From the NCBI GenBank assembly GCA_028286665.1, contig JAQBRD010000026.1, positions 7,967 through 71,966 of the forward strand: 64,000 nt of DNA. Reading direction: 5' to 3'. Made by a program: the position numbers and the translations under genes. Of this stretch, positions 41,374-54,552 are shown piece after piece. Each line of letters begins with the position of its first letter. Position 1 is the stretch's first letter. The notes beneath the pieces are model-generated. The model ran no database searches. It saw only the letters and a list, made by a program, of their open reading frames with translations, and had not been told where the DNA came from. This DNA comes from Candidatus Tayloriibacteriota bacterium (lineage in GTDB: Bacteria; Patescibacteriota; Minisyncoccia; Phycocordibacterales; PALSA-1337).

Positions 41374-41832
41374 GATGTTCCTATACGCGAATATTATACC
41401 ATGTGTTCTAATACAGGCCTATTTTTCGTCATGAAATAGCCCTTGCGTCAATGTCGTATATGTGGTATTGTAGTACGCGGTACAGAGTTGTGCCGATCGT
41501 CAATCAAATCAAGTTTTCGTCAGAAAATCAGCAGAAAAGGACTATAAGTATGATATTATCCCGTTCCACCAGTTCCCGGATCAGCGAGGAGAGGCGCATC
41601 AGCAGGCCTTTCTTCTTTTCCAAAGCCCAGGTGCATCGCGGCGCAAGCTTGGGTCATCCGACGCTTCCAAGCGAACGGCTCCTCAGCAAGTGCTCGAAGC
41701 TCCTCAGCCTCTTCGGCCGGTAATCAGTCGGGAATAGTGCATATCCCGGATGATTTCATTCAACACCACACCCCAGACTTTAAGCCGCGCATGCACCGCG
41801 GCTTTTTGTTTTCGCATCATTTCACAATACTA

Positions 41833-41861
41833 TTGACATATTATACCACATGCAGTATTAT
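41833..41861 (+). promoter_or_regulatory. Sigma-70-type promoter candidate TTGACA-17 nt-TATTAT for the gene at 41897.
   Basis: TTGACA at 41833..41838, 17-nt spacer, TATTAT at 41856..41861. Same architecture as the promoter at 21922. Confidence 0.4.
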
Positions 41862-41896: not shown

Positions 41897-42949
41897 ATGA
41901 CTATGTCTAACACCCAACTCAAACCAAAGCAGACGACGAAGCGACTTCTTGCGGTACTCCCAGATCGAGCGCGAGACGTGCTCATCAATCGTTACGGCCT
42001 TGGGAAGAGTTCGGAAAAGATGACGCTCGACGCGATCGGCAAGCTCTATGGCATCACTCGAGAGCGCGTCCGACAGATCGAGAACTACGCGATCAACAAT
42101 ATCCGCAAGTCGGATGTCTATAAATCCGAGAAGGCCGCATTCCAGGAAATGGAAGACATGCTCCACTCGCTCGGAGGCATCGTCGTCGAGGAAGATTTCC
42201 TCGGACATGTCGCAAAGGACGTCTCTACTCAGAATCACATCCACTTCCTCCTTGTCGTCGGCGATTCTTTCAAGAAGCACAAGGAAGACGAAGAATTCAA
42301 GCACCGATGGCATGTGAACGAATCTCTCGCGAAGCAGGTCGAAGACTCGCTCCGGAAGCTCTACGGATCCCTTTCAGACCAGGACCTCCTTCCTGAATCA
42401 GAGATGGTCAACCGATTCCTCGAGCATCTCGAAGGCGTCGCTGAGAAATACAAGAATCAGGAGATCATGAAGCGATGGCTCGGCATCTCGAAGCATATCG
42501 GCAAGAACGCCATCGGCGAATGGGGAGTCGCTCATTCTCCGAACATCAAGACGAAGGGCATGCGGGATTATGCATTCCTCGTCATCCGAAAGCACGGATC
42601 CCCGATCCACTTCCGAGAAGTCGCCAAGCAGATCAGCGTCGTCTTCAAGAAGAAGGCGCATGTCGCCACGACGCATAACGAGCTCATCAAGGATCCTCGA
42701 TTCGTCCTCGTCGGCCGCGGACTCTACGCGCTCGCAGAATGGGGATACATGTCAGGCGTCGTGAAGGACGTCATCAAGAAGATCGTCGACAAGCACGGCC
42801 CGCTCACTAAGGAAGAGATCATCGAGAAAGTCCTCAAGGAGCGATACGTGAAGGAGAACACGATCATGGTCAACCTCCAGAATCAGAAGCATTTCAAGAA
42901 AGACAAGGAAGGCCGATATCATCTCTCAGACGAAAAGACGGCCGCATAG
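41897..42949 (+). CDS. DNA-binding protein combining a sigma-70 region-4-like HTH with a C-terminal HARE-HTH (RNAP delta-subunit-like) domain.
   Basis: N-terminal VLINRYGLGKSSEKMTLDAIGKLYGITRERVRQIENYAINNIRK (sigma r4 signature ITRERVRQIE). C-terminal FLVIRKHGSPIHFREVAKQI...HNELIKDPRFVLVGRGLYALAEWGY, which is a HARE-HTH-like motif. Confidence 0.5.
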   Translation: MTMSNTQLKPKQTTKRLLAVLPDRARDVLINRYGLGKSSEKMTLDAIGKLYGITRERVRQIENYAINNIRKSDVYKSEKAAFQEMEDMLHSLGGIVVEEDFLGHVAKDVSTQNHIHFLLVVGDSFKKHKEDEEFKHRWHVNESLAKQVEDSLRKLYGSLSDQDLLPESEMVNRFLEHLEGVAEKYKNQEIMKRWLGISKHIGKNAIGEWGVAHSPNIKTKGMRDYAFLVIRKHGSPIHFREVAKQISVVFKKKAHVATTHNELIKDPRFVLVGRGLYALAEWGYMSGVVKDVIKKIVDKHGPLTKEEIIEKVLKERYVKENTIMVNLQNQKHFKKDKEGRYHLSDEKTAA

Positions 42950-42990: not shown

Positions 42991-44301
42991 ATGTTTGAAG
43001 AGTTTATTATTTGGTCCCCGATCTGGCTCACCGCGCTCGTAGGCTCCATCATCGGGCTGGTCTATTTCATCCCGACTGTCGCGCGCGAGTATGCCGGCTT
43101 ATTCGAGCAGTCCATCGCGATGCTCCTCATCACCATGCCGTATTGGCTGCCGGTTCTCGGCATCATCATCTTCTGGAATACATGGGTGGTCTTCGTCCGC
43201 GGACGCTACTTGGCAGGCATCAAATGGTCGCTGCTCGAATTGAAGCTTCCGCTCGAGATCACGAAAACCCCGCTCGCCATGGAGACGTTCCTCATGTCAT
43301 TGCATCAGGGAGGAAGCGAGGCGACGTTCATCGACCGCTGGTGGAAAGGCCAGACTCGCGGCATCTTCTCGCTCGAGATCATCTCCGTCGAAGGGCAGAT
43401 CAAGTTCCTCATCTATACGCAGACGAAGTTCCGCGGCATGATCGAAGCCGCCCTCTATGCGCAGTATCCCGACATCGAGATCCATGAAGCAGTCGATTAT
43501 ACGCACTCGGTCCATTTCGACCCGAAGGAAAGCGACATGTACGTCATCGACTACAAATTCACCGCGCCGGATCCGTATCCGATCAATACGTACGTTGAAT
43601 ACGGCATCGACGATACGAATGTCGATGAGGAGAACAAGATCGATCCGATCAACCACATGCTCGAATTCATGGGCTCGATCGGAACGAATCAGCAGTGCTG
43701 GTTCCAGCTCATCATGCGCCTGCACAAGGACGATCAGCATAAGCCGGGAACGCTCTTCGGCAAGTGGGACAAATTCAAGGATGACGCCAAGAAGGAGATC
43801 GAGAAGATCCGAGCGAGCGCCGTGCAGAAGACCGGCGACGACAAGATCAAGTTCCCGAATCCGACGAAGGGCGAGCAGGAGCGCATCGCCGCGATCGAAC
43901 GGAAGCTCTCGAAGCTTCCGTTCGACGTGGGACTGCGCGGCATCTATTTCGCGAAGAAGGAATTCTTCAATGGCGGAAATATCGGATCGCTCCGCACGAT
44001 GCTCCGCGCGTACAGCACCGGCCATCTGAACGGCTTCAAGCCGATGAACTGGCTCAACGACTTCGACTACCCATGGCAGGATTACAAGGATATGCGAAAG
44101 AATGCCCTCAAGCGCGAAGGCCTCGAGGCATACAAGCGTCGTTCTTATTTTTACCCTCCATTCGTCGGAAAATTGAATCTCGTCATGAACACCGAGGAGA
44201 TCGCTTCCATCTTCCATCTTCCTGGCCAGGTCGCGAAGACGCCGACATTGCCGCGACTTCCTTCGAAACGTTCGGAAGCTCCTGGAAATCTTCCAATATA
44301 A
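42991..44301 (+). CDS. Membrane protein (two N-terminal TM helices plus a ~330-aa cytoplasmic domain), hypothetical.
   Basis: TM helices IWLTALVGSIIGLVYFIP and LLITMPYWLPVLGIIIFWNTWVVFV. No motif recognised in the soluble domain. Separated from the downstream mltG by 6 nt. Confidence 0.45.
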   Translation: MFEEFIIWSPIWLTALVGSIIGLVYFIPTVAREYAGLFEQSIAMLLITMPYWLPVLGIIIFWNTWVVFVRGRYLAGIKWSLLELKLPLEITKTPLAMETFLMSLHQGGSEATFIDRWWKGQTRGIFSLEIISVEGQIKFLIYTQTKFRGMIEAALYAQYPDIEIHEAVDYTHSVHFDPKESDMYVIDYKFTAPDPYPINTYVEYGIDDTNVDEENKIDPINHMLEFMGSIGTNQQCWFQLIMRLHKDDQHKPGTLFGKWDKFKDDAKKEIEKIRASAVQKTGDDKIKFPNPTKGEQERIAAIERKLSKLPFDVGLRGIYFAKKEFFNGGNIGSLRTMLRAYSTGHLNGFKPMNWLNDFDYPWQDYKDMRKNALKREGLEAYKRRSYFYPPFVGKLNLVMNTEEIASIFHLPGQVAKTPTLPRLPSKRSEAPGNLPI

Positions 44302-44307
44302 TCCGTC

Positions 44308-45285
44308 ATGCGTTTTCGAACCTTTATTTGCATAGTGTTGGTGATCGTCGTGCTCGCATTCGCAGCAGTCGCTGCTTTCGCAGTGCTCTCATCTTCGCCG
44401 AGTGATTTTCCGATAGGCGCTACCGTCAATATTCCGAGGAATGCGACGATTTCCGAAATCGCAACTTCGCTCAAAGAACGCTCATTCATCCGATCGGAGG
44501 ATGCCTTCAAGGTTGCCGCGCTCATGCTCGGAGGCAGCAACGGGCTCCTGTCGGGCGACTATCTCTTCGATCGTCCGACGAATGTCTGGAAGCTCGTCGA
44601 ACGCATCACGAAAGGCGATCAGGGGATCGCTCGGGTGAAAGTGACATTTCCTGAAGGCATCACGGTGAAGGAGATGGGGAATATCGTCGCGTCGCAGGTG
44701 AGCGGGTTCGATGCTGCGGGATTCGTCGCGCGCGCATCGACATCGGAAGGATACCTCTTTCCTGATACGTATTATTTCTTCAGCAATGCCAAGCCGCTGG
44801 ACGTCGTTCGAGTCATCGCCGCCGAATTCGATCAGAAATATGCGACGTTGCTGAGCGATCCTGCCATCGTCGCCGGGACGATGTATGGCAAGACGAAACG
44901 CGAGATCGTCACCATGGCTTCGATCCTCGAAGACGAAGTGAAGAGCGCCCAGGACCGCTCGATCGTTTCAGGGATTCTCTGGAAGCGACTGGCAAAGGGC
45001 ATGCCGCTTCAGGTCGATGCTCCGTTTGGCTATATTCTCGGCAAATCCACCGAGGATCTGACGCTCGATGATCTCAAGACGAATTCTCCATACAATACCT
45101 ATTTGAATAAAGGCTTGCCGCCGACGCCGATCAACAACCCCGGCCTCGAAGCGCTCCGCGCGACGATGATGCCGACATCCACGCCGTACTGGTTCTATCT
45201 TTCTGATAAGAAGGGCGCGATCCATTATGCGAAGACATATGCGGAGCATCTCGCGAATAAAGAAAACTATCTCAACGGTAAATAG
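44308..45285 (+). CDS. mltG: Endolytic murein transglycosylase MltG (YceG family).
   Basis: N-terminal TM. YceG motifs EGYLFPDTYYF, REIVTMASILEDEVKSAQDRSIVSGILWKRLAKGMPLQVDAPFGY and GLPPTPINNPGLEALRA. Confidence 0.8.
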   Translation: MRFRTFICIVLVIVVLAFAAVAAFAVLSSSPSDFPIGATVNIPRNATISEIATSLKERSFIRSEDAFKVAALMLGGSNGLLSGDYLFDRPTNVWKLVERITKGDQGIARVKVTFPEGITVKEMGNIVASQVSGFDAAGFVARASTSEGYLFPDTYYFFSNAKPLDVVRVIAAEFDQKYATLLSDPAIVAGTMYGKTKREIVTMASILEDEVKSAQDRSIVSGILWKRLAKGMPLQVDAPFGYILGKSTEDLTLDDLKTNSPYNTYLNKGLPPTPINNPGLEALRATMMPTSTPYWFYLSDKKGAIHYAKTYAEHLANKENYLNGK

Positions 45286-45432: not shown

Positions 45433-46563
45433 ATGGCAAATCAGGCCGGGCAAAAAGAGAAAAAGCAGAAAGTCTTCGTCGGCATGTCCGGCGGGGTGGA
45501 CAGCTCCGTATCCGCGGCGCTGCTTGCCGAGGCTGGATATGACGTCACCGGCGTCTTCATCAAGGTCTGGCAGCCTGATTGGATCACCTGCACCTGGCGC
45601 GAGGATCGTCTCGATGCGATGCGCGTCGCTGCGAAGCTCGGCATCGATTTTCATACGCTCGATCTCGAAGAGACATATCGGCGCGAAGTCGTCGACTACA
45701 TGATCGACGAATACAAAGCAGGCCGCACGCCGAATCCCGACGTCATGTGCAACCGCCATGTGAAGTTCGGCGGATTCTTCGATTGGGCAATGGAGCAGGG
45801 CGCTGACTATGTCGCAACCGGGCATTATGCGCGGGTTCAAAAAGATGAAGCTGAAATCGCGTCCGCCGCCCCTCGCTTCAAACTCCTTGCCGGAGACGAT
45901 GCGAACAAAGACCAATCATATTTTCTCTGGACGCTCACCCAGCGGGAACTTTCGCATACGCTTTTCCCCGTCGGGAATATCGAGAAGCCGGAAGTGCGCA
46001 AGCTCGCGAAGAAATTCGGCCTGCCGAACGCCGAGAAGAAGGACAGCCAGGGCCTCTGCTTCATCGGCAAGATCGACGTGAAGGATTTCCTTTCGCGATA
46101 CATCGAGAAGAAGCCGGGCAACGTGATTGATGAGCAGGGGAATATCATCGGCACGCATGAGGGCGCTTGGATGTATACGAAAGGCGAGCGCCACGGCTTC
46201 ATCATAGATCCGCAGCATAAGACTCCTGACGACGCTCCGTATTATGTCGTCGCGAAAGGGATCGATACGAATACGATCACTGTCTCGAATAAGAAGATGG
46301 TCGAGGGAATCTTGCCGGCGCATATGCAAGCGGCAGTATCTATTGAGCGCGCAAGCTGGACTCTCGGCGAGGCGCCTGCGATCGGGAAGAAACTCACTGC
46401 GCGGCCGCGATATCGCGCGAAGCTTGTCGAGATGGAGTTCGAATCAATTTCGGCAGATACCGCAGTGATCCGCTTCGAACAGCCGCAGGAGAATCTTTCA
46501 TCCGGACAATCGCTCGTGATCTATGATGGGAATATCTGCCTCGGCGGCGGATTCATACAGTGA
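45433..46563 (+). CDS. mnmA: tRNA-specific 2-thiouridylase.
   Basis: PP-loop KVFVGMSGGVDSSVSAALL, catalytic Cys region (MCNRHVKFGGF, GLCFIGKID) and C-terminal beta-barrel. Confidence 0.9.
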   Translation: MANQAGQKEKKQKVFVGMSGGVDSSVSAALLAEAGYDVTGVFIKVWQPDWITCTWREDRLDAMRVAAKLGIDFHTLDLEETYRREVVDYMIDEYKAGRTPNPDVMCNRHVKFGGFFDWAMEQGADYVATGHYARVQKDEAEIASAAPRFKLLAGDDANKDQSYFLWTLTQRELSHTLFPVGNIEKPEVRKLAKKFGLPNAEKKDSQGLCFIGKIDVKDFLSRYIEKKPGNVIDEQGNIIGTHEGAWMYTKGERHGFIIDPQHKTPDDAPYYVVAKGIDTNTITVSNKKMVEGILPAHMQAAVSIERASWTLGEAPAIGKKLTARPRYRAKLVEMEFESISADTAVIRFEQPQENLSSGQSLVIYDGNICLGGGFIQ

Positions 46564-46589: not shown

Positions 46590-47504
46590 ATGAATCATCT
46601 CCTCTATGTCACCAAAGCCGACGGAAGCAGGGAGCTCTTCGAAGAAGAGAAGCTTGCGGAGTCCCTCAAGCGCGTCGGCGGCAGCGATGCCCTGATCGAC
46701 GAGATCGTCGAGAAGATCGAGGCTGAAATGAACAGCAGCATGACGACCGGCGAGATCTATCAGCATGCGTTCGAGCTTCTTCGCAAGCATGAAGCGCCAG
46801 TCGCGGTGAAATATTCGCTTCGCCGCGCGCTTTCCGAACTCGGTCCCGAAGGATTCCCGTTCGAGAAATACATCGCGGAGCTTTTCCGCGCGCAGGGCTA
46901 TCAGGCGCTCACTGATCAGATGGTCATGGGCGCATGCGTGCCGCATGAAGTAGACGTCGTCGCCTGGAACGAGCAGAAGCTCGTCATGGTCGAAGCGAAA
47001 TTCCATAACGAATTCGGCCTCAAGTCCGATGTGAAAGTAGCTCTTTACGTGAAGGCGCGTTTCGATGATATCAAAGGCAACATGTTCGACTATGGCGGCA
47101 TCCATCGGACGATGACTGAGGGATGGCTCGTGACGAATACGAAATTCACCGATCAGGCTATCAAGTACGGCGAGTGCAAAGGCCTGAAGATGATCGGATG
47201 GAATTACCCGCATCATGGCAGCCTCCAGCACATCATCGAGAGCTCGGGCCTCCATCCGCTCACCTGCCTCGTTTCCGTCAGCAACGTGCACAAGAAGCTG
47301 CTCATCGCCAAAGGCGTCGTCCTCTGCCGTGATCTGAAGCAGCGTCCGGAATTATTGAAGCAGGTCGGCCTCGACAATCTCCGGATCGCCCAGATCATCG
47401 AGGAGATCGATTCTGTCTGCGGGGTCAGCTTGGCTCCGCAGCAGTCGCCATCCGAATCCAGTTCGCAAGCCCCGTTTCCTGCAAGCACTCTGATATCAGC
47501 ATAA
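46590..47504 (+). CDS. ATP-cone domain fused to an Mrr-cat-type restriction-endonuclease-fold (PD-(D/E)xK) domain.
   Basis: ATP-cone VTKADGSRELFEEEKLAESLKRVG...IYQHAFELLRKHEAPVAVKY. Mrr_cat-like FEKYIAELFRAQGYQALTDQMVMGACVPHEVDVVAWNEQKLVMVEAKFH...GWLVTNTKFTDQAIKY with the D...E-x-K arrangement. Confidence 0.55.
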   Translation: MNHLLYVTKADGSRELFEEEKLAESLKRVGGSDALIDEIVEKIEAEMNSSMTTGEIYQHAFELLRKHEAPVAVKYSLRRALSELGPEGFPFEKYIAELFRAQGYQALTDQMVMGACVPHEVDVVAWNEQKLVMVEAKFHNEFGLKSDVKVALYVKARFDDIKGNMFDYGGIHRTMTEGWLVTNTKFTDQAIKYGECKGLKMIGWNYPHHGSLQHIIESSGLHPLTCLVSVSNVHKKLLIAKGVVLCRDLKQRPELLKQVGLDNLRIAQIIEEIDSVCGVSLAPQQSPSESSSQAPFPASTLISA

Positions 47505-47523
47505 TTATTTACATACAAAACCC

Positions 47524-48771
47524 ATGCCAAAGAAAACAGCAAAGAAATCCGCCAAGCCATACATTCCATCCCAGAAAATTCTCGAGCGATATGCAGACGT
47601 GCTCGTCAATTTCGCCCTCGGCGGAGGAAAGGGAATCAAGAAGGGCGAAGTCGTGCGCATCACCGCAGAGGAATACGCCAAGCCGTTTTATCTCGAGCTC
47701 CGCAAGGCAGTCTGGAAAGCCGGCGGCCATGTCCTCGGCAATTATCTCCCGAGCAACGACGAGCAGTACAATGTCGACCGCGACTTTTTCATCCATACGC
47801 AGGAGCATCAGCTTTCATTTTTTCCAGACAAGCATCTGAAAGGACTGATCGAGCAGCTCGACCATACGATCTTCATCGACAGCGAGACCAACAAGCAGTC
47901 GCTCGCAGGCATCGATCCGAAGAAGCTTATGCAGCAGGGCCGGGTGATGAAGCCATGGATGGAATGGAGGAACGAAAAGGAGAACGCAGGCAAGTTCACC
48001 TGGACGATGGCGCTGTATGCGACGGAAGCCATGGCAAAAGAAGCTGGGCTTTCGCATCAGGAATACTGGAAGCAGATCATCGACGCATGTTTCCTCAACG
48101 AGAAGAATCCGATCGCGAAATGGAAGCAGCTCTACAAGAAGCTCGAATCATACCGGGCGAAATTGAATGCGCTTCCGGTCGACAAATTTCATATACAAGG
48201 ACCTGACGCGGATCTGTGGATCAAGTATGGCGAAAAGCGCGCATGGATGGGCGGCAGCGGACGGAATATCCCGAGCTTCGAGCTCTTCACCTCGCCTGAT
48301 TGGCGCGGCACCGAAGGCTGGATCCGCCTCAATCAGCCGCTCTACCGGTACGGCAATCTCATCGAAGGCATCGAGCTCCATTTCAAGGACGGCAAGGTCG
48401 TGAAGTCGAGCGCCAAGAAGAATGAGAAAGTCCTGAAGGAAATGATCGCGCAGCCGAATGCCGACAAGATCGGCGAATTCTCGATGACCGACAAGCGATT
48501 TTCCCGCATCACGAAGTTCATGGCTGAAACTCTTTATGATGAGAATGTCGGCGGTCCGAACGGCAACACGCATATCGCCCTCGGCAATGCGTATCATGAT
48601 TGCTATGCAAGCGATCCGTCGAAGGTCACGAAGGAAGAATGGGAGCGTCTCGGCTACAACAATTCATCAGTCCACACCGACGTCATCTCGACGACGCCGC
48701 GAATCGTCACTGCGCATATGACCGACGGCACGACCAAGGTCATCTACAAGAACGGCATGTATGTCCTCTAA
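47524..48771 (+). CDS. M29-family (AmpS / aminopeptidase T-like) aminopeptidase.
   Basis: N-terminal ILERYADVLVNFALGGGKGIKKGEVVRI matches the AmpS N-terminus. Size (415 aa) and the conserved acidic/His residues of M29 are present. Confidence 0.6.
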   Translation: MPKKTAKKSAKPYIPSQKILERYADVLVNFALGGGKGIKKGEVVRITAEEYAKPFYLELRKAVWKAGGHVLGNYLPSNDEQYNVDRDFFIHTQEHQLSFFPDKHLKGLIEQLDHTIFIDSETNKQSLAGIDPKKLMQQGRVMKPWMEWRNEKENAGKFTWTMALYATEAMAKEAGLSHQEYWKQIIDACFLNEKNPIAKWKQLYKKLESYRAKLNALPVDKFHIQGPDADLWIKYGEKRAWMGGSGRNIPSFELFTSPDWRGTEGWIRLNQPLYRYGNLIEGIELHFKDGKVVKSSAKKNEKVLKEMIAQPNADKIGEFSMTDKRFSRITKFMAETLYDENVGGPNGNTHIALGNAYHDCYASDPSKVTKEEWERLGYNNSSVHTDVISTTPRIVTAHMTDGTTKVIYKNGMYVL

Positions 48772-49951
48772 CAGCGGCGATACAATCATCCGGCTTTCAT
48801 TCGCAAATACGACGAATCGCGATCAGTTCTATCCGGTCCGAGTCGAGATCGGCGATGACTTCTTCCTTCTTGAAAAGATCGGATCGGACGGATCAGGCGC
48901 ACGATCGATTCAGAAATATATCTTTCTCGATAACCGAGAATTCGAATTCTTCAAGGAGCACAGCGCAGGATCAGGCATCGAAGCCGTCGCGCTCGAGCCG
49001 CTCATCACGGAGGCGAAAGCCACGCCTGAAGCTCCGAGCATTGGTCTTGGCATGCGCCTCGCGATAGTTATCCTACAGAAATATGGCGCAGGGCAGCCGG
49101 GCGCAAGCATCGAAGTGCCGAATTATTTTCCGCTCGATATGGCAGACTATCTCCGATCGAAGGGCATCGTGCTCAATGTGACGAAGCCGTTTCGGCCAGA
49201 GCGCCAATTGAAGAATGATGCGGAGATCGCAGCCATCGAGGCAAGCATCAAGAAGACGCAGCATGCGTATCGGAAGATCGAAGACATTCTCCGCGCGTCG
49301 AAGATTGAAGCGAAAGACGGCGCGAACGTCCTCGTCTATCAAGGAAAGATCCTCACTTCGGAATTCCTGAAGAAGGAGGTCGACAAAGTTCTCGTCGAAC
49401 ATGGGATGTCCAATGTGGCCGGCATAATCATTTCTTGCGGAAAGGATGCATCCATCGCGCATCATCCGGGAGCTGGCGCAATCCGTGCAGGCGAAACGAT
49501 CATCTGCGATCTCTTTCCTGTTTCGACCGAGACCGGATATTTCGCTGACATGACCCGCACCTATGTGAAGGGAAAGCCGAGCGAGAAAGCGCAGCAGATG
49601 TACGATGCGGTGCTTGAAGCGCAGGAAGCCGCGCTCGAATTCGCCAAGCCCGGCGCGAAGATCGCAGACATGCACGAGCTCTGCTGCGAGATGTTCCGCG
49701 TGCGAGGTTTCCATGTCGGCGACCGAGGCTTCACGCACAGCACCGGCCACGGTCTGGGCCTCGATCTGCATGAATCGCCGAACGTGAGTTCATCTTCGAC
49801 TGCGGCCTTCGAGGTCGGCCACGTCGTTACTGTCGAGCCAGGTCTCTACTATCCCGAGCATGGCGGCGTCCGCATCGAAGACGTCATCGCCATCACAAAA
49901 GACGGCAGCAGGAATCTCACCGAGTATCCGAAGGTTTTCATCATCGAATAG
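48761..49951 (+). CDS. M24-family Xaa-Pro aminopeptidase/dipeptidase (creatinase-like N-domain + pita-bread fold).
   Basis: M24 signature HSTGHGLGLDLHESP, metal ligands (D...D...H...E...E) and C-terminal VRIEDVIAITKDG. Overlaps the previous gene by 11 nt. Confidence 0.8.
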   Translation: MSSNSGDTIIRLSFANTTNRDQFYPVRVEIGDDFFLLEKIGSDGSGARSIQKYIFLDNREFEFFKEHSAGSGIEAVALEPLITEAKATPEAPSIGLGMRLAIVILQKYGAGQPGASIEVPNYFPLDMADYLRSKGIVLNVTKPFRPERQLKNDAEIAAIEASIKKTQHAYRKIEDILRASKIEAKDGANVLVYQGKILTSEFLKKEVDKVLVEHGMSNVAGIIISCGKDASIAHHPGAGAIRAGETIICDLFPVSTETGYFADMTRTYVKGKPSEKAQQMYDAVLEAQEAALEFAKPGAKIADMHELCCEMFRVRGFHVGDRGFTHSTGHGLGLDLHESPNVSSSSTAAFEVGHVVTVEPGLYYPEHGGVRIEDVIAITKDGSRNLTEYPKVFIIE

Positions 49952-49999: not shown

Positions 50000-51919
50000 A
50001 TGACACTCCAAGAACTACGCAGCAAATTCCTCGCATATTATGAGAAGAACGGGCATGCGATCATCCCGTCGTCCTCGCTCGTTCCTGAGAATGATCCGAC
50101 AACGCTCTTCACCGGTTCCGGCATGCAGCCGCTCGTTCCATATCTGCTCGGTCAGAAACATCCGCAGGGAACCCGTCTCGTGAATTCGCAGAAGTCCTTC
50201 CGCTCGGGAGACATCGACGATATCGGCGACAATCGGCACACGACATTTTTCGAGATGCTCGGCAACTGGTCGCTCGGCGATTATTTCAAGAAAGAGCAGC
50301 TTCCGCAGGTCTTCCGATTCCTCACTGAGGAAGTCGGCCTCGATCCGAAGCGCCTCTATGTGAGCGCGTTCATCGGCGACGAAGCTAATGGCGTTCCGAA
50401 AGACGCCGAAGCCGAGGCGATCTGGAAAGAGCTTTTCGCTTCGAAGGGAATCGATGCGAAGACTGTCGACATCGGCAGCGAAGCGCGAGGCGCCGAGATC
50501 GGCATGCAGGGCGGACGCATCTTCTTCTATGACGTGAAGAAGAATTGGTGGTCGCGATCCGGCATTCCGGCGAACATGCCTGCCGGCGAACCGGGAGGCC
50601 CTGACTCGGAGCTTTTCTATGAGTTTGATTTCATCGAGCACAATCCGAAATTCGGCGCGCATTGCCATCCGAACTGCGATTGCGGACGCTACATCGAATT
50701 CGGCAACTCTGTTTTCATGCAGTACAAGAAGAACGAAGCCGGCGGATTCGAATTGCTTCCGCAGTTAAATGTCGACTTCGGCGGCGGACTCGAGCGATTC
50801 GCCATGGCTGCGAACAACACTGCAGACATCTTCGGCCTCGACGTTTTCGCCGATCTCATCTCGACCCTCGAAACGAAGAGCGGCAAGAAATACAAGGACG
50901 CAGATGGAAAGGAAAATGAATATACCGCTGCATTCCGCGTAGTCGTTGACCACATCCGCGCATCCGTCTTCCTCATCGGCGACGGCGTCATTCCTTCGAA
51001 CAATGAGCGCGGCTATTTCGTCCGACGCTTGCTCCGCCGCGCCATCCGCTATTGGGACAAGCTCGGCATCAACGAGGGCGGCATCGCATCGACGGTCGAC
51101 GCGCTTCTCGAGAGCTACAAGGATGCATATCCTGAAACATACGCTCGCCGAACTGAAATCAAAGCTGAGATCGAAACCGAAGAGCAGAAATTCCGCACGA
51201 CACTCCGACATGGCTTGAAGGAGATCGAGAAGATCTTCGTTGATCTGCAATCGCAGAAGAAAGACGTGATTTCAGGCATCGATGCAGCGACGCTCTACCA
51301 GTCATACGGCTTTCCTGTTGAACTGACGCAGGAACTCGCGAAAGAAAAGGGAGTCAAGATTGATATGGACGGCTTCCATGCTGAAATGAAAAAGCATCAG
51401 GATCTTTCTCGCGCCGGTTCCGAAAAGAAATTCAAAGGCGGCCTTGCAGACACGAGCGACATGTCCCTCCGCTACCATACTGCCACGCACCTCCTCAATG
51501 CAGCGCTCCGCCAAGTCCTCGGCGATCATGTCGGGCAGAAGGGCAGCAACATCACGCCTGAACGACTTCGTTTCGATTTCTCGCATCCTGCGAAGATGAC
51601 CGACGAAGAAAAGAAGAAGGTCGAAGCCCTCGTTAACGGCGCGATCGAAGCGGCGTTTCCCGTTTCATTCAGAGAAATGCCGAAGGAAGAAGCAGAGAAG
51701 CTCGGCGCCATCCATGCATTCGGAGAGAAGTACGGCGACGTCGTGAAGGTCTACACCGTCGGCGACGAAGCGAAGCCGTTCAGCCGAGAATTCTGCGGAG
51801 GTCCGCATGTCTCGAATACGAAAGAACTCGCTGGTCCGGAAGGCAAGGCGCGATTCGTCATTCAGAAAGAAGAAGCGTCATCTCAAGGCATCCGACGCAT
51901 CAAAGCTGTGCTTGCATAA
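50000..51919 (+). CDS. alaS: Alanine--tRNA ligase, short form lacking the C-terminal C-Ala domain.
   Basis: N-terminal FLAYYEKNGHAIIPSSSLVPENDPTTLFTGSGMQPLVPYLLG, editing-domain HTATHLLNAALRQVLGDHVGQKGS and CGGPHV. The ORF ends at 639 aa, whereas bacterial AlaRS is usually ~870 aa. Confidence 0.85.
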   Translation: MTLQELRSKFLAYYEKNGHAIIPSSSLVPENDPTTLFTGSGMQPLVPYLLGQKHPQGTRLVNSQKSFRSGDIDDIGDNRHTTFFEMLGNWSLGDYFKKEQLPQVFRFLTEEVGLDPKRLYVSAFIGDEANGVPKDAEAEAIWKELFASKGIDAKTVDIGSEARGAEIGMQGGRIFFYDVKKNWWSRSGIPANMPAGEPGGPDSELFYEFDFIEHNPKFGAHCHPNCDCGRYIEFGNSVFMQYKKNEAGGFELLPQLNVDFGGGLERFAMAANNTADIFGLDVFADLISTLETKSGKKYKDADGKENEYTAAFRVVVDHIRASVFLIGDGVIPSNNERGYFVRRLLRRAIRYWDKLGINEGGIASTVDALLESYKDAYPETYARRTEIKAEIETEEQKFRTTLRHGLKEIEKIFVDLQSQKKDVISGIDAATLYQSYGFPVELTQELAKEKGVKIDMDGFHAEMKKHQDLSRAGSEKKFKGGLADTSDMSLRYHTATHLLNAALRQVLGDHVGQKGSNITPERLRFDFSHPAKMTDEEKKKVEALVNGAIEAAFPVSFREMPKEEAEKLGAIHAFGEKYGDVVKVYTVGDEAKPFSREFCGGPHVSNTKELAGPEGKARFVIQKEEASSQGIRRIKAVLA

Positions 51920-51959
51920 TCGATGCGCGAGCTTGCGCCTGTGTGATATACTATTTCGC

Positions 51960-53153
51960 ATGATCTTCTCATCTCTATCGAAAAAAGAGAACAAAGCGCC
52001 CGGAGAATTATGGGCGCTCATCGACATCCAGAGCGGACTCGTCCGCGGATCTATCGTGCTCCTGTCGCCGAAGGGCATTCAGTCTCGAGTCATCTATACT
52101 ATCCAGCACGCGCTTCCGCATAAGTCCGAGATGAACAGTGGATATATCACGAAGACCATGCTTCACGGAGTAGCCGAAGTCGCTGCGCTCCTCGCTCGCG
52201 ATGGCATGCAGCGAGTCCGAGGCCTCGATCTCGGCCGTGATTTCCGTCCTGAGCTCTGCGGCATCCACTACATTCTCTCGTCTCCATGGGTCATGTCGCA
52301 GACAAAGCGGGTGAAAGTCTCATATGGGAAGCCTACTGCAATCAGCAGATCGAGCGTCGCCGCCATCATCGACAAGGCTCGCGAAGAGCTTGAAGCCGGC
52401 ATGAAGGACTTCGATGCGACGCTCATCGAGCAGAAGATATTCGAAGTGAAGCTCAACGGCTATTCGGTCACGGAATATGAAGGAAAGACCGCCAACGATC
52501 TCGATGTCTCATGCGCGCTTTCCATAAGCTCGAAGAAGATGCTGCAGCGGATTTCCAACGAAGTGCAGCGGTACCTCCATGCGAAACAAGAGCATCATCA
52601 CTCCGCGCTGCTCCTCGAGTATGCCGGCCTCCGCGCCATACTGCATCAGCACAATGAATACATGGTCATCCATGCGCATAGCGAGCTTACCGATGTCGTC
52701 GTCGTGAAGAACAACATGTGCGTGTTCATTTCTTCGTTCCCATTCGGCATAGCTACGATCATCAGGAAGATGGCGAAGACCTTGCGTCAGAGCATGCCTG
52801 CTGCGGATTCGCTGCTGACCCTTTTCGACGGAGGAAAGCTTTCCGATGAGGAGCGCGCTCGGATCTCTCCGATCATCAATGAGATCGGCAAAGGCTGGGT
52901 GCACGATCTCTTCGCGACGCTTGCTCATGCGGGCGAGACCATGGTCATTCCGAGGAATATCATCCTCTCGGCGCATAGTCATTTCAGTTTTTTCGCAATA
53001 GAGCTCAATTCGCCCCCGTCTGCGCCGGAGTATAAGCCGAACATCGCGGCTCTCGAGCTTCCGATGATCGCCGATTTCATAACGTATGATCCTGGCCAGG
53101 AAAGAAGTCTGAGAATCGGCATTTACACGACAGCGCTCGCATCACTCGAATAA
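51960..53153 (+). CDS. Hypothetical protein with a possible actin-like ATPase fold (PilM/FtsA-like N-terminus).
   Basis: Start set at MIFSSLSK (ATG 51960). N-terminal ALIDIQSGLVRGSIVLLSPKG resembles the phosphate-1 motif of actin-like ATPases. This is weak and remains unverified. Confidence 0.3.
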   Translation: MIFSSLSKKENKAPGELWALIDIQSGLVRGSIVLLSPKGIQSRVIYTIQHALPHKSEMNSGYITKTMLHGVAEVAALLARDGMQRVRGLDLGRDFRPELCGIHYILSSPWVMSQTKRVKVSYGKPTAISRSSVAAIIDKAREELEAGMKDFDATLIEQKIFEVKLNGYSVTEYEGKTANDLDVSCALSISSKKMLQRISNEVQRYLHAKQEHHHSALLLEYAGLRAILHQHNEYMVIHAHSELTDVVVVKNNMCVFISSFPFGIATIIRKMAKTLRQSMPAADSLLTLFDGGKLSDEERARISPIINEIGKGWVHDLFATLAHAGETMVIPRNIILSAHSHFSFFAIELNSPPSAPEYKPNIAALELPMIADFITYDPGQERSLRIGIYTTALASLE

Positions 53154-53161
53154 AAAAACAC

Positions 53162-54499
53162 ATGTCACCAAGAAAATCACTTCAAGATATCGTTCCGCCA
53201 ACACGCCGCCCGTCAGCAAAGGGCGCTTCTTCTCGCGCATCTGTGCCGAATGAGACGCCGATCCAGATCAGGAAGCACGAAAAGCCTCAGGAAAGTCCTC
53301 GTGAAAAGACGATTGAGCGCAAAGCTTCCGAACCGAAGCACAAGAAGTCATACCGACGTTCGTGGATGCTCGTCACGTTCATCTTTCTGGTCATTTCGCT
53401 CGGCGTGATCGGCGCAGCCATCACGCTCATCTTCTCGAAGGGAACTATCGTCATAAAGCCGAAGACCATATCCGTAGCAGTCAGCACTTCGCAGATCGCA
53501 AAGCTCAATGCAGTTCCGCCGCAGCTTGCGTACGAAGTCATCAGCGCTTCTGAAGAGGCAAGAACCGATGTTCCTGCGGTTCAGACGAGCGCAGTCGAAA
53601 AGAAGGCTGTCGGACTGATCACGCTGTATAATAATTTCAGCAATACGCCGCAGAAGATCGTTTCCGGCACCCGCGTTTCGAATGCGAAAGACCTCATATA
53701 CAGAACGACCTACGATGTCATCATCCCTGCTCAGAAAATCGTCGCAGGAAAGGCGGTTCCTGGCAGCGTGAACGTGCACATCGCAGCTGAAAAGCCAGGC
53801 CCTGACTACAATTCATCGCTCACCGATCTCACGGGCGATTTCAAGGTCGTCGCATTCCAGAACACTCCGAAATACACGAAGATATTCGCTCGCATGAAGA
53901 CTGACATCACTGGCGGTTACTCCGGCAAGCAGGTCGTTCCGGACAAGAACGCACAAGCCGCAGCGGAGAAGGCGCTTGCAGGAAAGCTCAATGCGAAACT
54001 CATCGCGAACGCCAAGAACCTCATTCCGAAAGGATATGTCGCGTACGACGGCGCATATGCTATCCGATACATTCCGCTGAGCCCGGCTGCGCAAGGCACG
54101 AGCAGCGCATCGGTCGGCGTCCGAGCTGTCTATACCGGCTATGTATTCAAAGCCGATGATCTCGTCCGTTCGTTTGCGAAAGATCAGCTTGCGCAATTTC
54201 CGCCGGAGGGCTATGCATTCGCCGGCCTCGATACGCTTGCGTTCAAGCAGGCAAGCACGAGCGCCGCTCAGGCATCATCGACCATCGCATTCAGCCTGAA
54301 GGGCAATATCAAGATCGTCGGCACCATACCCGTAGATAAGCTGAAGAAGGAGCTGGCAGGAAAACAGGTTCAGGATACCGGCTCGATCATCAAGAGGTAT
54401 GGAACGGTCGGCGGCGCATATGCTAAGATATTCCCTGTCTGGATGCGATCGCTGCCCGATGATCCTGACCGTATCAATGTCGAAATCCAATCCGAATAG
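53162..54499 (+). CDS. Single-pass membrane protein with a basic cytoplasmic N-terminus and a large extracytoplasmic domain, hypothetical.
   Basis: Basic N-terminal ~70 aa, TM WMLVTFIFLVISLGVIGAAITLIF, then ~350 aa extracellular. The 8-nt gap after the previous gene suggests an operon. Confidence 0.4.
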   Translation: MSPRKSLQDIVPPTRRPSAKGASSRASVPNETPIQIRKHEKPQESPREKTIERKASEPKHKKSYRRSWMLVTFIFLVISLGVIGAAITLIFSKGTIVIKPKTISVAVSTSQIAKLNAVPPQLAYEVISASEEARTDVPAVQTSAVEKKAVGLITLYNNFSNTPQKIVSGTRVSNAKDLIYRTTYDVIIPAQKIVAGKAVPGSVNVHIAAEKPGPDYNSSLTDLTGDFKVVAFQNTPKYTKIFARMKTDITGGYSGKQVVPDKNAQAAAEKALAGKLNAKLIANAKNLIPKGYVAYDGAYAIRYIPLSPAAQGTSSASVGVRAVYTGYVFKADDLVRSFAKDQLAQFPPEGYAFAGLDTLAFKQASTSAAQASSTIAFSLKGNIKIVGTIPVDKLKKELAGKQVQDTGSIIKRYGTVGGAYAKIFPVWMRSLPDDPDRINVEIQSE

Positions 54500-54552
54500 C
54501 GGAAATAGGGCTTTTTGAGGGCGATTCCTGTGAATCGCCCTGAATGGGCGTA

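Follow-up and report, generated by a model that had tools for sequence, protein, structure and literature searches.

Domain architecture and family

The window, that is, the whole stretch of 64,000 nt that was analyzed, contains an ORF between mnmA and the gene of an M29 aminopeptidase, all on the same strand (Table 1). In a sequence search the ORF protein was identical to a protein of a Candidatus Taylorbacteria MAG, and it shares its start methionine (MNHL...) with its homologs. Scans of the whole window for tRNAs and Rfam families gave no match, and the overall numbers of predicted promoters and terminators were at the level of chance.

Table 1. Features of the ORF and its two neighbors (positions in the window)
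Feature	Position	Strand	Remark
mnmA (tRNA 2-thiouridylase), upstream neighbor	45433..46563	+	Pfam; ends 26 nt before the ORF
Whole ORF, 304 aa	46590..47504	+	ATP-cone, PD-(D/E)xK (Mrr_cat) nuclease, AF1548-like C-terminal domain and short disordered tail
ATP-cone domain, aa 6-81	46605..46832	+	Putative adenine-nucleotide sensor
PD-(D/E)xK nuclease domain (Mrr_cat), aa 88-199	46851..47186	+	
Glu92	46863..46865	+	Acidic helix-1 residue of the nuclease active site; 99-100% conserved
Asp122 (EVDVV), codon GAC	46953..46955	+	Catalytic Asp of the PD motif; matches D38 predicted for AF1548
Glu135-Ala-Lys137 (VEAKFH), codons GAA GCG AAA	46992..47000	+	(D/E)xK motif
AF1548-like C-terminal helical domain, aa 223-276	47256..47417	+	Probable nucleic-acid-binding module
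Ser/Pro-rich C-terminal tail, aa 280-304	47427..47501	+	Peculiar to the ORF protein; pLDDT <50
M29 aminopeptidase, downstream neighbor	47524..48771	+	Pfam, 318 bits; 19 nt past the ORF stop

The original prediction had assigned the N-terminal part of the protein to the ATP-cone and the remainder to the Mrr_cat domain with its PD-(D/E)xK fold. Both assignments hold. The N-terminal part matches PF03477 (ATP-cone) with 32.7 bits, above the gathering cut-off of 25.8, and a fold search confirms the ATP-cone fold, a beta-hairpin with a helical bundle. The homologs from Pontibacter and Criblamydia pass PF03477 too (28.3 and 36.2 bits, respectively). When the isolated N-terminal 89 aa were compared to PDB with phmmer, only designed helical repeats were found; a family profile, not the single N-terminal sequence, is needed to reach NrdD and NrdR in PDB. 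The remainder passes the gathering score of PF04471 (Mrr_cat) and has a restriction-endonuclease fold. The structure model used here was built with a diverse alignment and has a pLDDT of 91.8; an alignment of close homologs gave a poor model (61.7).

Both the order of the three domains and homology over the full length connect the ORF protein to the AF1548 family (ATP-cone, Mrr_cat and AF1548-like_C; PDB 1Y88), of which it is a typical member. Most homologs stop at about aa 279-284 and thus do not have the Ser/Pro-rich tail. Two cysteines, C116 and C196, are invariant in the family.

What was first treated as a one-off fusion is hence a large three-domain family, already annotated (as "ATP cone domain-containing protein") and with a partial crystal structure. 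A word index returned 4,956 hits, the family forms 463 clusters at 50% identity (E <= 1e-30), and one scan found carriers in at least 571 species-level genomes. The family occurs widely in Patescibacteria, in many Archaea, in Bacteroidota and in Chlamydiota. Full-length proteins of about 275-295 aa make up nearly all of the top 150 cluster representatives, hence the fusion of ATP-cone and nuclease is near-obligate. Our search of the literature on AF1548 and on ATP-cone/nuclease fusions found no functional, biochemical or genetic study of any family member.

Conserved residues of the nuclease and the ATP-cone

Judged from an alignment of 395 bacterial and archaeal relatives, the nuclease active site is intact and invariant. 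E92 is 99-100% conserved in each of three divergent sequence groups, and so are R157, D160 and N183; D122, E135 and K137 are conserved in every relative (100%). The 2007 GOS study predicted that AF1548 is a restriction endonuclease with the catalytic residues D38, E51 and K53 (PMC1821046). These three residues correspond to D122, E135 and K137 of the ORF protein. Among the nearest nuclease folds in the fold search are the ligand-gated nucleases Can2, Card1 and Cdn1.

In the ATP-cone, conservation reaches at least 90% at K9, G12, K21, T53 and Y75, and E15 is conserved as well. The domain is a putative adenine-nucleotide sensor, and most of its presumed ligand-contact positions are conserved. 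Position 10 differs between groups. The canonical K-R of the ATP-cone is kept in 51% of the archaeal members, which have Arg at position 10, while the ORF protein has K-A; Ala occupies this position in 97% of the close Patescibacteria set. Arg10 presumably binds phosphate, and the ATP-cone positions presumably correspond to the ligand contacts of NrdA. The NrdR of Escherichia coli, whose ATP-cone is functional, has K-S at the same place, so Arg10 is not obligatory. The replacement by Ala in the Patescibacteria proteins suggests that their ligand may differ from ATP/dATP.

The original prediction had named two ways in which it could fail: catalytic residues that are not conserved, or an ATP-cone that does not pass a profile search. 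Since the catalytic E/D/ExK residues (99-100%) and the ATP-cone residues are conserved and the ATP-cone passes its profile search, a candidate nucleotide-sensing nuclease is still the best reading of the sequence.

Gene neighborhood, constraint and mobility

Distribution and neighborhood, which the original prediction had proposed to analyze, reveal a wide family and near-universal synteny in Paceibacteria-type genomes. Of 60 Paceibacteria-type loci, 59 have mnmA upstream in the same orientation, and AlaRS lies downstream in 55 of 58; relatives also carry a peptidase (M3 and/or M29) downstream of the gene. The median identity of the ATP-cone nuclease (59%) equals that of MnmA (59%) and exceeds that of AlaRS (47%) and YceG (44%). 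The gene behaves like a vertically conserved core housekeeping gene. The synteny with mnmA, the peptidase and alaS may reflect nothing beyond vertical inheritance. In the flanks fetched (up to 6 kb per side), genes for beta-CASP, phosphorylase or Prs-like proteins occur neither around the ORF of the window nor in any of 85 Paceibacteria-type loci.

The family is neither mobile nor viral in character. Searches with tblastn found no family match among 50,697 phage records and just two full-length matches among 72,556 plasmids. The 2.9 million viral contigs of IMG/VR contain no family match either, and a fold search of BFVD returned only partial matches to single domains (TMq <= 0.34).

Operons of the sister subfamily and archaeal contexts

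A sister subfamily, only about 41% identical to the Paceibacteria-type protein of the window, has a different gene context. In metagenomes, a beta-CASP RNase gene directly follows the ATP-cone nuclease on the same strand in 26 of 59 sister-subfamily loci, and in 18 of these 26 the gap is at most 82 nt. The beta-CASP partner is of the RNA type, with an RMMBL domain. Among the 41 loci whose downstream sequence extends to 4.5 kb or more, 11 also contain the phosphorylase and 10 the Prs-like gene. The Paceibacteria loci, with 0 of 85, serve as the background for these counts. About half of the sister-subfamily loci do not have the cassette, and their neighbors are heterogeneous.

Pontibacter and Criblamydia carry the cassette in the order ATP-cone nuclease, beta-CASP RNase, AMP/thymidine-phosphorylase-family protein, Prs-like protein. 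Compared protein by protein, the two cassettes are 49-60% identical, and both are plasmid-borne, near an IS element (IS5 transposase) or an integrase. This similarity and the plasmid setting suggest that the cassettes may go back to a single horizontal origin and might be mobile as a module.

Archaeal neighborhoods are heterogeneous, and five of the six examined are uninformative. The exception is a Bathyarchaeia contig, where an equivalog-level AMP phosphorylase, which itself follows an R15P isomerase, overlaps with its end the family gene downstream. Published work documents the AMP phosphorylase/R15P isomerase pathway for CPR and DPANN (PMC5113843, PMC6389311). A literature search for a link between beta-CASP proteins and AMP phosphorylase found nothing.

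The nuclease was originally described as stand-alone. This is true for the genome studied here and does not hold for the sister subfamily, where the gene is operonic with the beta-CASP RNase and nucleotide-catabolic enzymes.

A proposed nucleotide-gated housekeeping nuclease

To explain these observations, we propose that the ORF protein is an adenine-nucleotide-gated endonuclease with a housekeeping role in the turnover of nucleic acids and the salvage or catabolism of nucleotides, a reading to which we give about an even chance. It draws on the architecture, the active site, the contact positions of the ATP-cone, the synteny and conservation of the gene and the operon linkage of the sister subfamily. 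From these we infer that the protein binds nucleotides, in which direction they regulate it and what it cleaves, and that the Paceibacteria-type protein in the window shares the salvage role. The salvage role is carried over from the sister subfamily at about 41% identity, and the partners found there are missing from the Paceibacteria flanks that we fetched.

In the proposed mechanism, the ORF protein would be an active, metal-dependent endonuclease. Binding of ATP or dATP (possibly ADP or AMP) to the ATP-cone would switch the nuclease activity, probably because the protein changes its oligomeric state or the packing of its domains, as ribonucleotide reductases and NrdR do. Re-oligomerization is the usual way in which ATP-cones act. 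Controlled cleavage of RNA or DNA would then start turnover and salvage or catabolism; foreign DNA would not be the target. The cuts would leave 5'-phosphate ends, which exonucleases, such as the beta-CASP RNase of the sister subfamily, could turn into mononucleotides. These mononucleotides would be reused or phosphorolysed by an AMP/NMP phosphorylase.

Alternatively, the protein could be a nuclease of DNA repair or recombination similar to NucS/EndoMS or Hjc, which cuts mismatched, branched or damaged DNA while the ATP-cone couples repair to the dNTP supply. We consider this unlikely. The score for Hjc (PF01870) is 13.2 bits and stays under the cut-off of 21.1, in Geoglobus ahangari a distinct Hjc gene lies 2 kb away from the family member, and the N-terminal domain of NucS is absent from the ORF protein. 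Furthermore, the sole statistically recurrent partner is the RNA-type beta-CASP nuclease together with nucleotide-catabolic enzymes, and not a repair gene.

Defense was among the roles first suggested (defense, stress or growth control). A defense nuclease against phages or plasmids (Type IV/Mrr-like or abortive infection) would sense through its ATP-cone a nucleotide pool disturbed by infection, which would unleash the nuclease. Restriction enzymes do dominate the Mrr_cat family, and the structural neighbors include AspBHI, MspJI, LlaBIII, Upx, Shedu, Can2, Card1 and NucC. Weak PADLOC matches to the nuclease portions of the ZorD, PDC-S02 and CARF-PDDEXK models also speak for defense, as do the in-frame PemK/MazF toxin domain at the N-terminus of two relatives, the IS5 transposase or integrase that adjoins the four-gene cassette on plasmids, and the MjaI-type R-M pair beside one archaeal copy. 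Against it, the best match of the ORF protein in PADLOC-DB 2.0 (E = 0.002) covers the nuclease core only, and no defense model matches convincingly. The cassette partners match none of 5,027 PADLOC models, and the recurrent partners are metabolic (RNase, NMP phosphorylase, Prs-like protein). Neither the window nor the 85 related loci contain defense-island neighbors. Defense genes are usually patchy in distribution and quick to evolve. The gene order here is near-universal in the sampled Paceibacteria-type genomes, the constraint is that of MnmA and stronger than that of AlaRS, and the family is missing from phage records and IMG/VR. This housekeeping pattern makes a defense role quite improbable, while the operon of the sister subfamily points to the other side of the original suggestion: stress or growth control, or nucleotide economy.

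Very unlikely is a non-catalytic, NrdR-like transcriptional regulator, whose nuclease fold and C-terminal domain would bind DNA with an affinity set by the ATP/dATP ratio: the catalytic residues and R157, D160 and N183 are 99-100% conserved across Bacteria and Archaea (395 sequences), whereas a domain that only binds would not be expected to keep them. The protein also has no Zn-ribbon, its ATP-cone lies at the N-terminus, and none of the gene contexts examined has a conserved association with RNR genes.

Implications of the proposed ATP-cone-controlled nuclease

The ATP-cones characterized to date control ribonucleotide reductases and the repressor NrdR allosterically, and the literature that we searched contains no functional study of an ATP-cone on any other enzyme. 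A gated housekeeping endonuclease of the kind that we propose would bring the ATP-cone switch to the breakdown of nucleic acids. The ligand-gated PD-(D/E)xK nucleases, of which the known ones respond to cyclic-oligonucleotide second messengers, would gain a member gated by a primary metabolite.

More tentatively, AF1548 proteins may be the first case of an ATP-cone that controls an enzyme other than a ribonucleotide reductase. They would be endonucleases gated by energy or dNTP status, and they would form the regulated entry into the catabolism and salvage of nucleic acids. Together with a beta-CASP exonuclease they would feed the AMP-phosphorylase/ribose-1,5-bisphosphate pathway. We regard this wider proposal as possible but doubtful. 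In small-genome CPR, DPANN and other lineages, the breakdown of RNA or imported DNA to mononucleotides would be licensed only if the state of the adenylate/dATP pool requires it. If true, the AF1548 family would fill the upstream half of the published 'nucleoside pathway' of CPR and Archaea.

Most CPR bacteria must scavenge nucleotides. Their biosynthetic capacity is described as very limited (PMC7304191). The linkage of the gene to the beta-CASP RNase, the AMP/thymidine-phosphorylase, the Prs-like protein and the R15P isomerase provides a concrete hypothesis for how nucleic-acid turnover could be metered. The family has cultivable hosts, namely Pontibacter actiniarum, Archaeoglobus, Geoglobus and Ferroglobus; the Pontibacter ortholog is WP_237151220.1. 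The hypothesis concerns a family that is abundant across Bacteria and Archaea and, in Paceibacteria-type CPR bacteria, equals a tRNA-modification enzyme in constraint.

Comparison with known systems

AF1548 from Archaeoglobus fulgidus (PDB 1Y88) is a structural-genomics 'protein of unknown function' with the same Pfam architecture as the ORF protein. The 1Y88 chain itself does not include the ATP-cone: after the tag it starts at the equivalent of residue 94, whereas a 99%-identical protein of 265 aa carries the ATP-cone. The 2004 entry can hence be re-read as a truncated piece of a sensor-nuclease. Besides the K-R that is frequent in archaeal ATP-cones, archaeal members differ from the ORF protein in having Y/T/G in place of K145/S146/D147.

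With E. coli Mrr, MspJI and AspBHI the ORF protein shares the Mrr_cat catalytic family and the intact D...ExK motif, but it has neither an N-terminal winged helix nor an SRA-like reader of modified DNA. For a Type IV enzyme such as Mrr, a patchy, mobile distribution or a defense-island setting would be expected, whereas the ORF gene is conserved and syntenic. NucS/EndoMS has an N-terminal domain for dimerization and DNA binding where the ORF protein has its ATP-cone, and the ORF protein adds a C-terminal helical domain. Hjc is a small, single-domain dimeric resolvase, and the ORF protein falls below the gathering score of its family.

The ATP-cones of NrdR, NrdA, NrdB and NrdD act on an RNR barrel or a Zn-ribbon; in the ORF protein, the output domain is a PD-(D/E)xK nuclease. 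NrdR regulates nrd operons and consists of a Zn-ribbon followed by an ATP-cone, while the ORF protein does not have the Zn-ribbon and none of the family neighborhoods examined contains nrd genes.

The CARF-type nucleases Can1, Can2 and Card1, which are associated with type III CRISPR, match weakly and only in their nuclease half; the ORF protein has no CARF domain, and no CRISPR or CBASS context was seen around the family gene. Can1, Can2, Card1, Cdn1 and Cap4 belong to the CARF/SAVED family and, like NucC, are gated by cyclic oligoadenylates, whereas the ORF protein has an ATP-cone that presumably senses ATP/dATP.

Domain architecture and active site

The target protein fuses an ATP-cone to an Mrr_cat nuclease domain. 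Its ORF lies exactly where the original prediction placed it (see table), and both domain assignments hold in a Pfam search: the ATP-cone covers residues 6-81 (E = 1.1e-7, 32.7 bits against a curated cut-off of 25.8) and Mrr_cat residues 88-199 (E = 3.8e-7, 30.7 bits against a cut-off of 21). The two-domain reading overlooked a third domain, AF1548-like_C, at residues 223-276, which stays below its cut-off here (16.3 against 23.9 bits) and exceeds it in a profile search of the homolog from Pontibacter. It also overlooked that residues 85-278 are, by sequence, unmistakably homologous to PDB 1Y88, 'hypothetical protein AF1548' of Archaeoglobus fulgidus (phmmer E = 8.5e-32; family profile E = 7e-52). 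For the ATP-cone the figures are 10.9 for NrdR, 10.6 for NrdB and 10.2 for NrdD; for PD-(D/E)xK nucleases they are 11.3 for NucS, 10.2 for AspBHI, 10.1 for Can2, 9.7 for VC1899 and 9.2 for Upx and LlaBIII. Together, the Pfam matches, the 1Y88 homology and these NrdR- and NucS-type figures confirm the fusion far beyond chance. This protein alone ends in a Ser/Pro-rich tail of 25 residues that is predicted to be disordered (SLAPQQSPSESSSQAPFPASTLISA; 47427-47501), and most relatives stop at about residue 279-284, without the tail.

The nuclease active site is invariant. Loss of the catalytic residues, the outcome that would have spoken against a nuclease, does not occur among 395 aligned relatives (120 close Patescibacteria, 155 divergent cluster representatives and 120 archaeal proteins): D122, E135 and K137 are conserved to 100% in each of the three groups and E92 to 99-100%. 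The same alignment gives 100% for R157 and D160, 99-100% for N183 and E120, and 98-100% for Y153. The ATP-cone is conserved as well, with K9, G12, K21, T53 and Y75 each at 90% or more in every group and E15 at 69-100%; we take these positions to be equivalent to the nucleotide contacts of E. coli NrdA. Only position 10 departs from the canonical V-x-K-R-D-G motif, with Ala in place of Arg (Ala in 97% of the close Patescibacteria set, Arg in 51% of archaea). Arg is not obligatory there, because E. coli NrdR, whose ATP-cone is functional, carries Ser at this position in the family-profile alignment.

Two cysteines, C116 (46935-46937) and C196 (47175-47177), are 88-100% conserved across Bacteria and Archaea, AF1548 included; C226 and C246 are conserved in subsets only. 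A disulfide, a metal site or a redox switch are conceivable roles for the conserved cysteines.

Family size and earlier annotation

A Candidatus Taylorbacteria MAG encodes a hypothetical protein with exactly the same sequence as the target. A word-indexed search returns 4,956 homologs at E <= 1e-3, of which the best 120, the exact match aside, share 61-78% identity and are mostly about 280 aa long. An exhaustive search of representatives yields 1,185 clusters at 50% identity, 463 of them with E <= 1e-30. Nearly all of the best 150 representatives are full length; hence the three-domain fusion is the rule and the ATP-cone is near-obligately fused. Scanning one genome per species places the family in at least 571 genomes, and most of the 80 listed carry Patescibacteria or Paceibacteria-type titles. 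Full-length relatives also come from Archaeoglobi, Nanoarchaeota, Aenigmarchaeota, Korarchaeota, Bathyarchaeia and Altiarchaeales.

The target is a member of the AF1548 family and carries every membership feature tested. When the crystallised AF1548 sequence is the query, it retrieves a 265-aa protein (P0276) that is 99% identical and contains all three domains. The 1Y88 chain begins after its TEV tag at the equivalent of target residue 94 (nt 46869 onwards), without the ATP-cone. The 2004 structure is therefore of an ORF call truncated at its N-terminus, and this truncation probably concealed that the family consists of sensor-nucleases. The fusion is already known to databases as annotation ('ATP cone domain-containing protein', 'Restriction endonuclease/ATP cone domain' and, at JGI, 'Holliday junction resolvase'). 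AF1548 was predicted to be a restriction endonuclease with D38/E51/K53 in the 2007 GOS paper (PMC1821046); our literature search found no other published statement on AF1548 and no functional study of the fusion.

Two relatives, each from a separate Taylorbacteria-type contig, have an in-frame N-terminal fusion to a PemK/MazF-like toxin domain of about 165 aa, with no intervening stop codon (444 and 447 aa; P0033, encoded at L012:581-1915 (+), and P0013). Both keep the usual MNHL start internally.

Gene order and constraint

The target sits in a long run of co-directional genes.

Features of the gene array around the target
Feature	Position	Strand	Remarks
Terminator-like hairpin	41782-41804		8 pairs, 6 GC
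Promoter-like site	41833-41861		29 nt on from the hairpin; 11/12 matches
Sigma70_r4/HARE-HTH protein	41897-42949	+	350 aa; Sigma-70 region 4 and HARE-HTH domain
DUF8128-like	42991-44301	+	no Pfam match in window; DUF8128 flagged in homologs
YceG/MltG	44308-45285	co-directional with target	
MnmA	45433-46563	+	26 nt before target
Target ORF	46590-47504	+	ATG start, 304 aa
M29 aminopeptidase	47524-48771	+	19 nt after target
M24 peptidase	48761-49951	co-directional with target	
AlaRS	50000-51919	co-directional with target	
Large ORF	51807-53153	+	no Pfam match
Large ORF	53162-54499	+	no Pfam match
Terminator-like site	54536-54550	+	next on this strand with all-G-C stem (5 pairs), after the last ORF

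Of 80 related loci, 60 have enough flank to look for MnmA, and 59 of these carry it upstream in the same orientation (at most 400 nt away in 46); AlaRS lies downstream in 55 of 58. Median identity to the window proteins is 59% for both the target and MnmA, 47% for AlaRS and 44% for YceG and DUF8128. Compared pair by pair, the target exceeds AlaRS in conservation in 56 cases out of 59 and YceG in all 58. Local G+C (0.55) equals that of the surroundings. Shared synteny, identity level and matching G+C mark the target as a strongly constrained gene passed on vertically, unlike a defence gene; its evolution is housekeeping-like.

The two large ORFs are poorly conserved (median identity 31-32%). 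As called, the first begins inside AlaRS, overlapping its last 113 nt, and probably has its true start further downstream. The most conserved gene of the block encodes the Sigma70_r4/HARE-HTH protein (median identity 75%, range 66-88%, well above MnmA and AlaRS), which seems to be an unusual putative transcription factor kept under strong constraint in Paceibacteria-type genomes. Just upstream of it, flanking the start of the array, lie the strongest terminator-like and promoter-like sites of the region. Together with the terminator-like site after the last ORF, these would point to a single long transcription unit comprising about 11 genes, target included, with overall counts of such sites showing no excess over chance. 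The whole 64-kb window holds no tRNA or tmRNA gene (ARAGORN) and no Rfam family at gathering score.

Many MAGs titled 'uncultured Candidatus Saccharibacteria bacterium' (loci L009-L084) share the order Sigma/HARE-HTH, DUF8128, YceG, MnmA, target, AlaRS, and their label looks like a bulk-submission placeholder. Mis-binning probably explains a 3.2-kb contig assigned to 'Bacteroidota' (L052, 60% identical).

A putative nucleotide-salvage cassette in a sister subfamily

Members of a sister subfamily recurrently share operons with genes for nucleotide-monophosphate catabolism or salvage and with a nuclease family of the RNA-type, 5'-processing kind. Plasmid-borne relatives, with 41-42% identity to the target, occur in two cultivated hosts for which curated annotation exists: Pontibacter actiniarum (Bacteroidota) and Criblamydia sequanensis (Chlamydiota). 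On each plasmid, the family gene ('ATP cone domain-containing protein') heads the same tightly spaced, co-directional cassette, followed by 'MBL fold metallo-hydrolase', 'thymidine phosphorylase family protein' and 'ribose-phosphate pyrophosphokinase'. Profile searches identify the second protein as a beta-CASP ribonuclease (Lactamase_B, Beta-Casp and the RMMBL 'RNA specificity' domain), whose best NCBIfam similarities, Cas14-type and aCPSF1, each stay below cut-off. The phosphorylase is archaeal-type (NF003338, 668-679 bits against 434; ARCH_P_rylase, 589-602 against 434.6) and falls just under the AMP_phos threshold (480-506 against 535), and the cassette closes with a member of the PRK07199 Prs subfamily. 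Since Pontibacter and Criblamydia share 49-60% identity in each of the four proteins, the cassettes may go back to one horizontal origin. In Criblamydia (L094:137-12886), phosphoketolase and glycogen phosphorylase lie upstream and acetate kinase downstream; on paper, this plasmid would couple pentose or nucleotide breakdown to substrate-level ATP formation.

Scanning metagenome contigs with the cassette subfamily gave at least 573 relatives and 80 loci, whose flanks were searched by tblastn. A beta-CASP gene occurs in 30 of the 59 loci having at least 1.6 kb downstream. In 26 of the 59 it follows directly on the same strand, 18 times with a gap of at most 82 nt. With at least 4.5 kb downstream (n=41), beta-CASP occurs in 22 loci, the phosphorylase in 11 and a Prs-like gene in 10. 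Loci without the cassette have heterogeneous neighbours (LexA, TetR, DoxX, AAA_28, P-type ATPases, MgtC). The same search found no cassette gene near any of the 85 Paceibacteria-type loci (fetched flanks of at most 6 kb each side). Independently of the bacterial cassette, a family member on a Bathyarchaeia contig overlaps the 3' end of an equivalog-level AMP phosphorylase gene (617 bits against 535), itself preceded by ribose-1,5-bisphosphate isomerase (419 against 314); the remaining five archaeal contexts examined were uninformative.

Divergent family members often adjoin ion or solute transporter genes (loci L087, L092, L097, L132, L154, L094, L086, L175), among them CorA (overlapping), a Na/Pi cotransporter (1-nt gap) and MgtC/DUF4010. 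In L132 and L154 the gene directly downstream encodes a heavy-metal P-type ATPase, in Criblamydia (L094) a cation P-type ATPase is encoded some 4 kb upstream, and two Archaeoglobi loci carry an amino-acid permease fused to a Usp domain. These neighbours could be coincidence or hint at a Mg2+, phosphate or starvation connection.

Alternative roles

A repair or recombination nuclease fits the structural similarity to NucS and Hjc, the housekeeping behaviour and the occasional UvrA, RuvB or LexA neighbours, but the Hjc score is below cut-off, Geoglobus has a separate Hjc near its family member, and the recurrent partners are not repair genes.

The defence role suggested originally is contradicted by the target's conservation and synteny, by its absence from viruses and by missing matches to defence models. 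Relatives are absent from 50,697 phage records and, using patterns of either subfamily, from 2.9 million IMG/VR contigs; BFVD holds nothing beyond partial, single-domain matches, and only two of 72,556 plasmids have full-length matches. PADLOC models match the target weakly and only in the nuclease core, and match none of the cassette partners. The phage, IMG/VR, plasmid and PADLOC results are consistent with vertical inheritance, not defence. A defence nuclease is thus a less probable reading, with four points in its favour: membership of Mrr_cat, structural resemblance to defence nucleases, a PemK fusion in each of two relatives, and a cassette found on plasmids near an IS element or an integrase. 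The invariant active site makes a non-catalytic, NrdR-like regulator improbable.

Proposed mechanism and known systems

We propose an adenine-nucleotide-gated endonuclease for nucleic-acid turnover and nucleotide salvage. Binding of adenine nucleotides to the ATP-cone would switch the nuclease, probably through re-oligomerisation, by analogy with RNRs and NrdR (PMC9110341). The nuclease would then cut RNA or DNA endonucleolytically. PD-(D/E)xK enzymes are known to leave 5'-phosphate ends, which RNase J-type beta-CASP exonucleases prefer. Exonucleases would turn the fragments into NMPs for reuse or phosphorolysis. The RMMBL partner favours RNA as the substrate; the PD-(D/E)xK fold and the C-terminal domain, which we read as helix-hairpin-helix-like, favour DNA. 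The 'nucleoside pathway' of AMP phosphorylase and R15P isomerase is documented in CPR and DPANN, where its genes are reported to be largely vertically inherited (PMC5113843, PMC6389311). The word 'nuclease' is absent from the main texts of both papers; hence neither names an upstream nuclease. The weakest step is the transfer of the salvage role to the window protein, because identity to the cassette subfamily is only about 41% and no Paceibacteria-type locus has a partner in its fetched flanks of at most 6 kb each side.

The AF1548 family is abundant and ancient, and in a major uncultivated lineage its member is under housekeeping-like constraint. Its gene context leads to a specific hypothesis that is testable in cultivable hosts. 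Case by case, we rejected the target as an E. coli-type Mrr, NrdR, Hjc, NucS or CARF nuclease, because it lacks the defining sensor or recognition domain or scores below the threshold. Instead, it would work like ATP-cone allostery combined with a ligand-gated PD-(D/E)xK nuclease such as Can2 or Card1.
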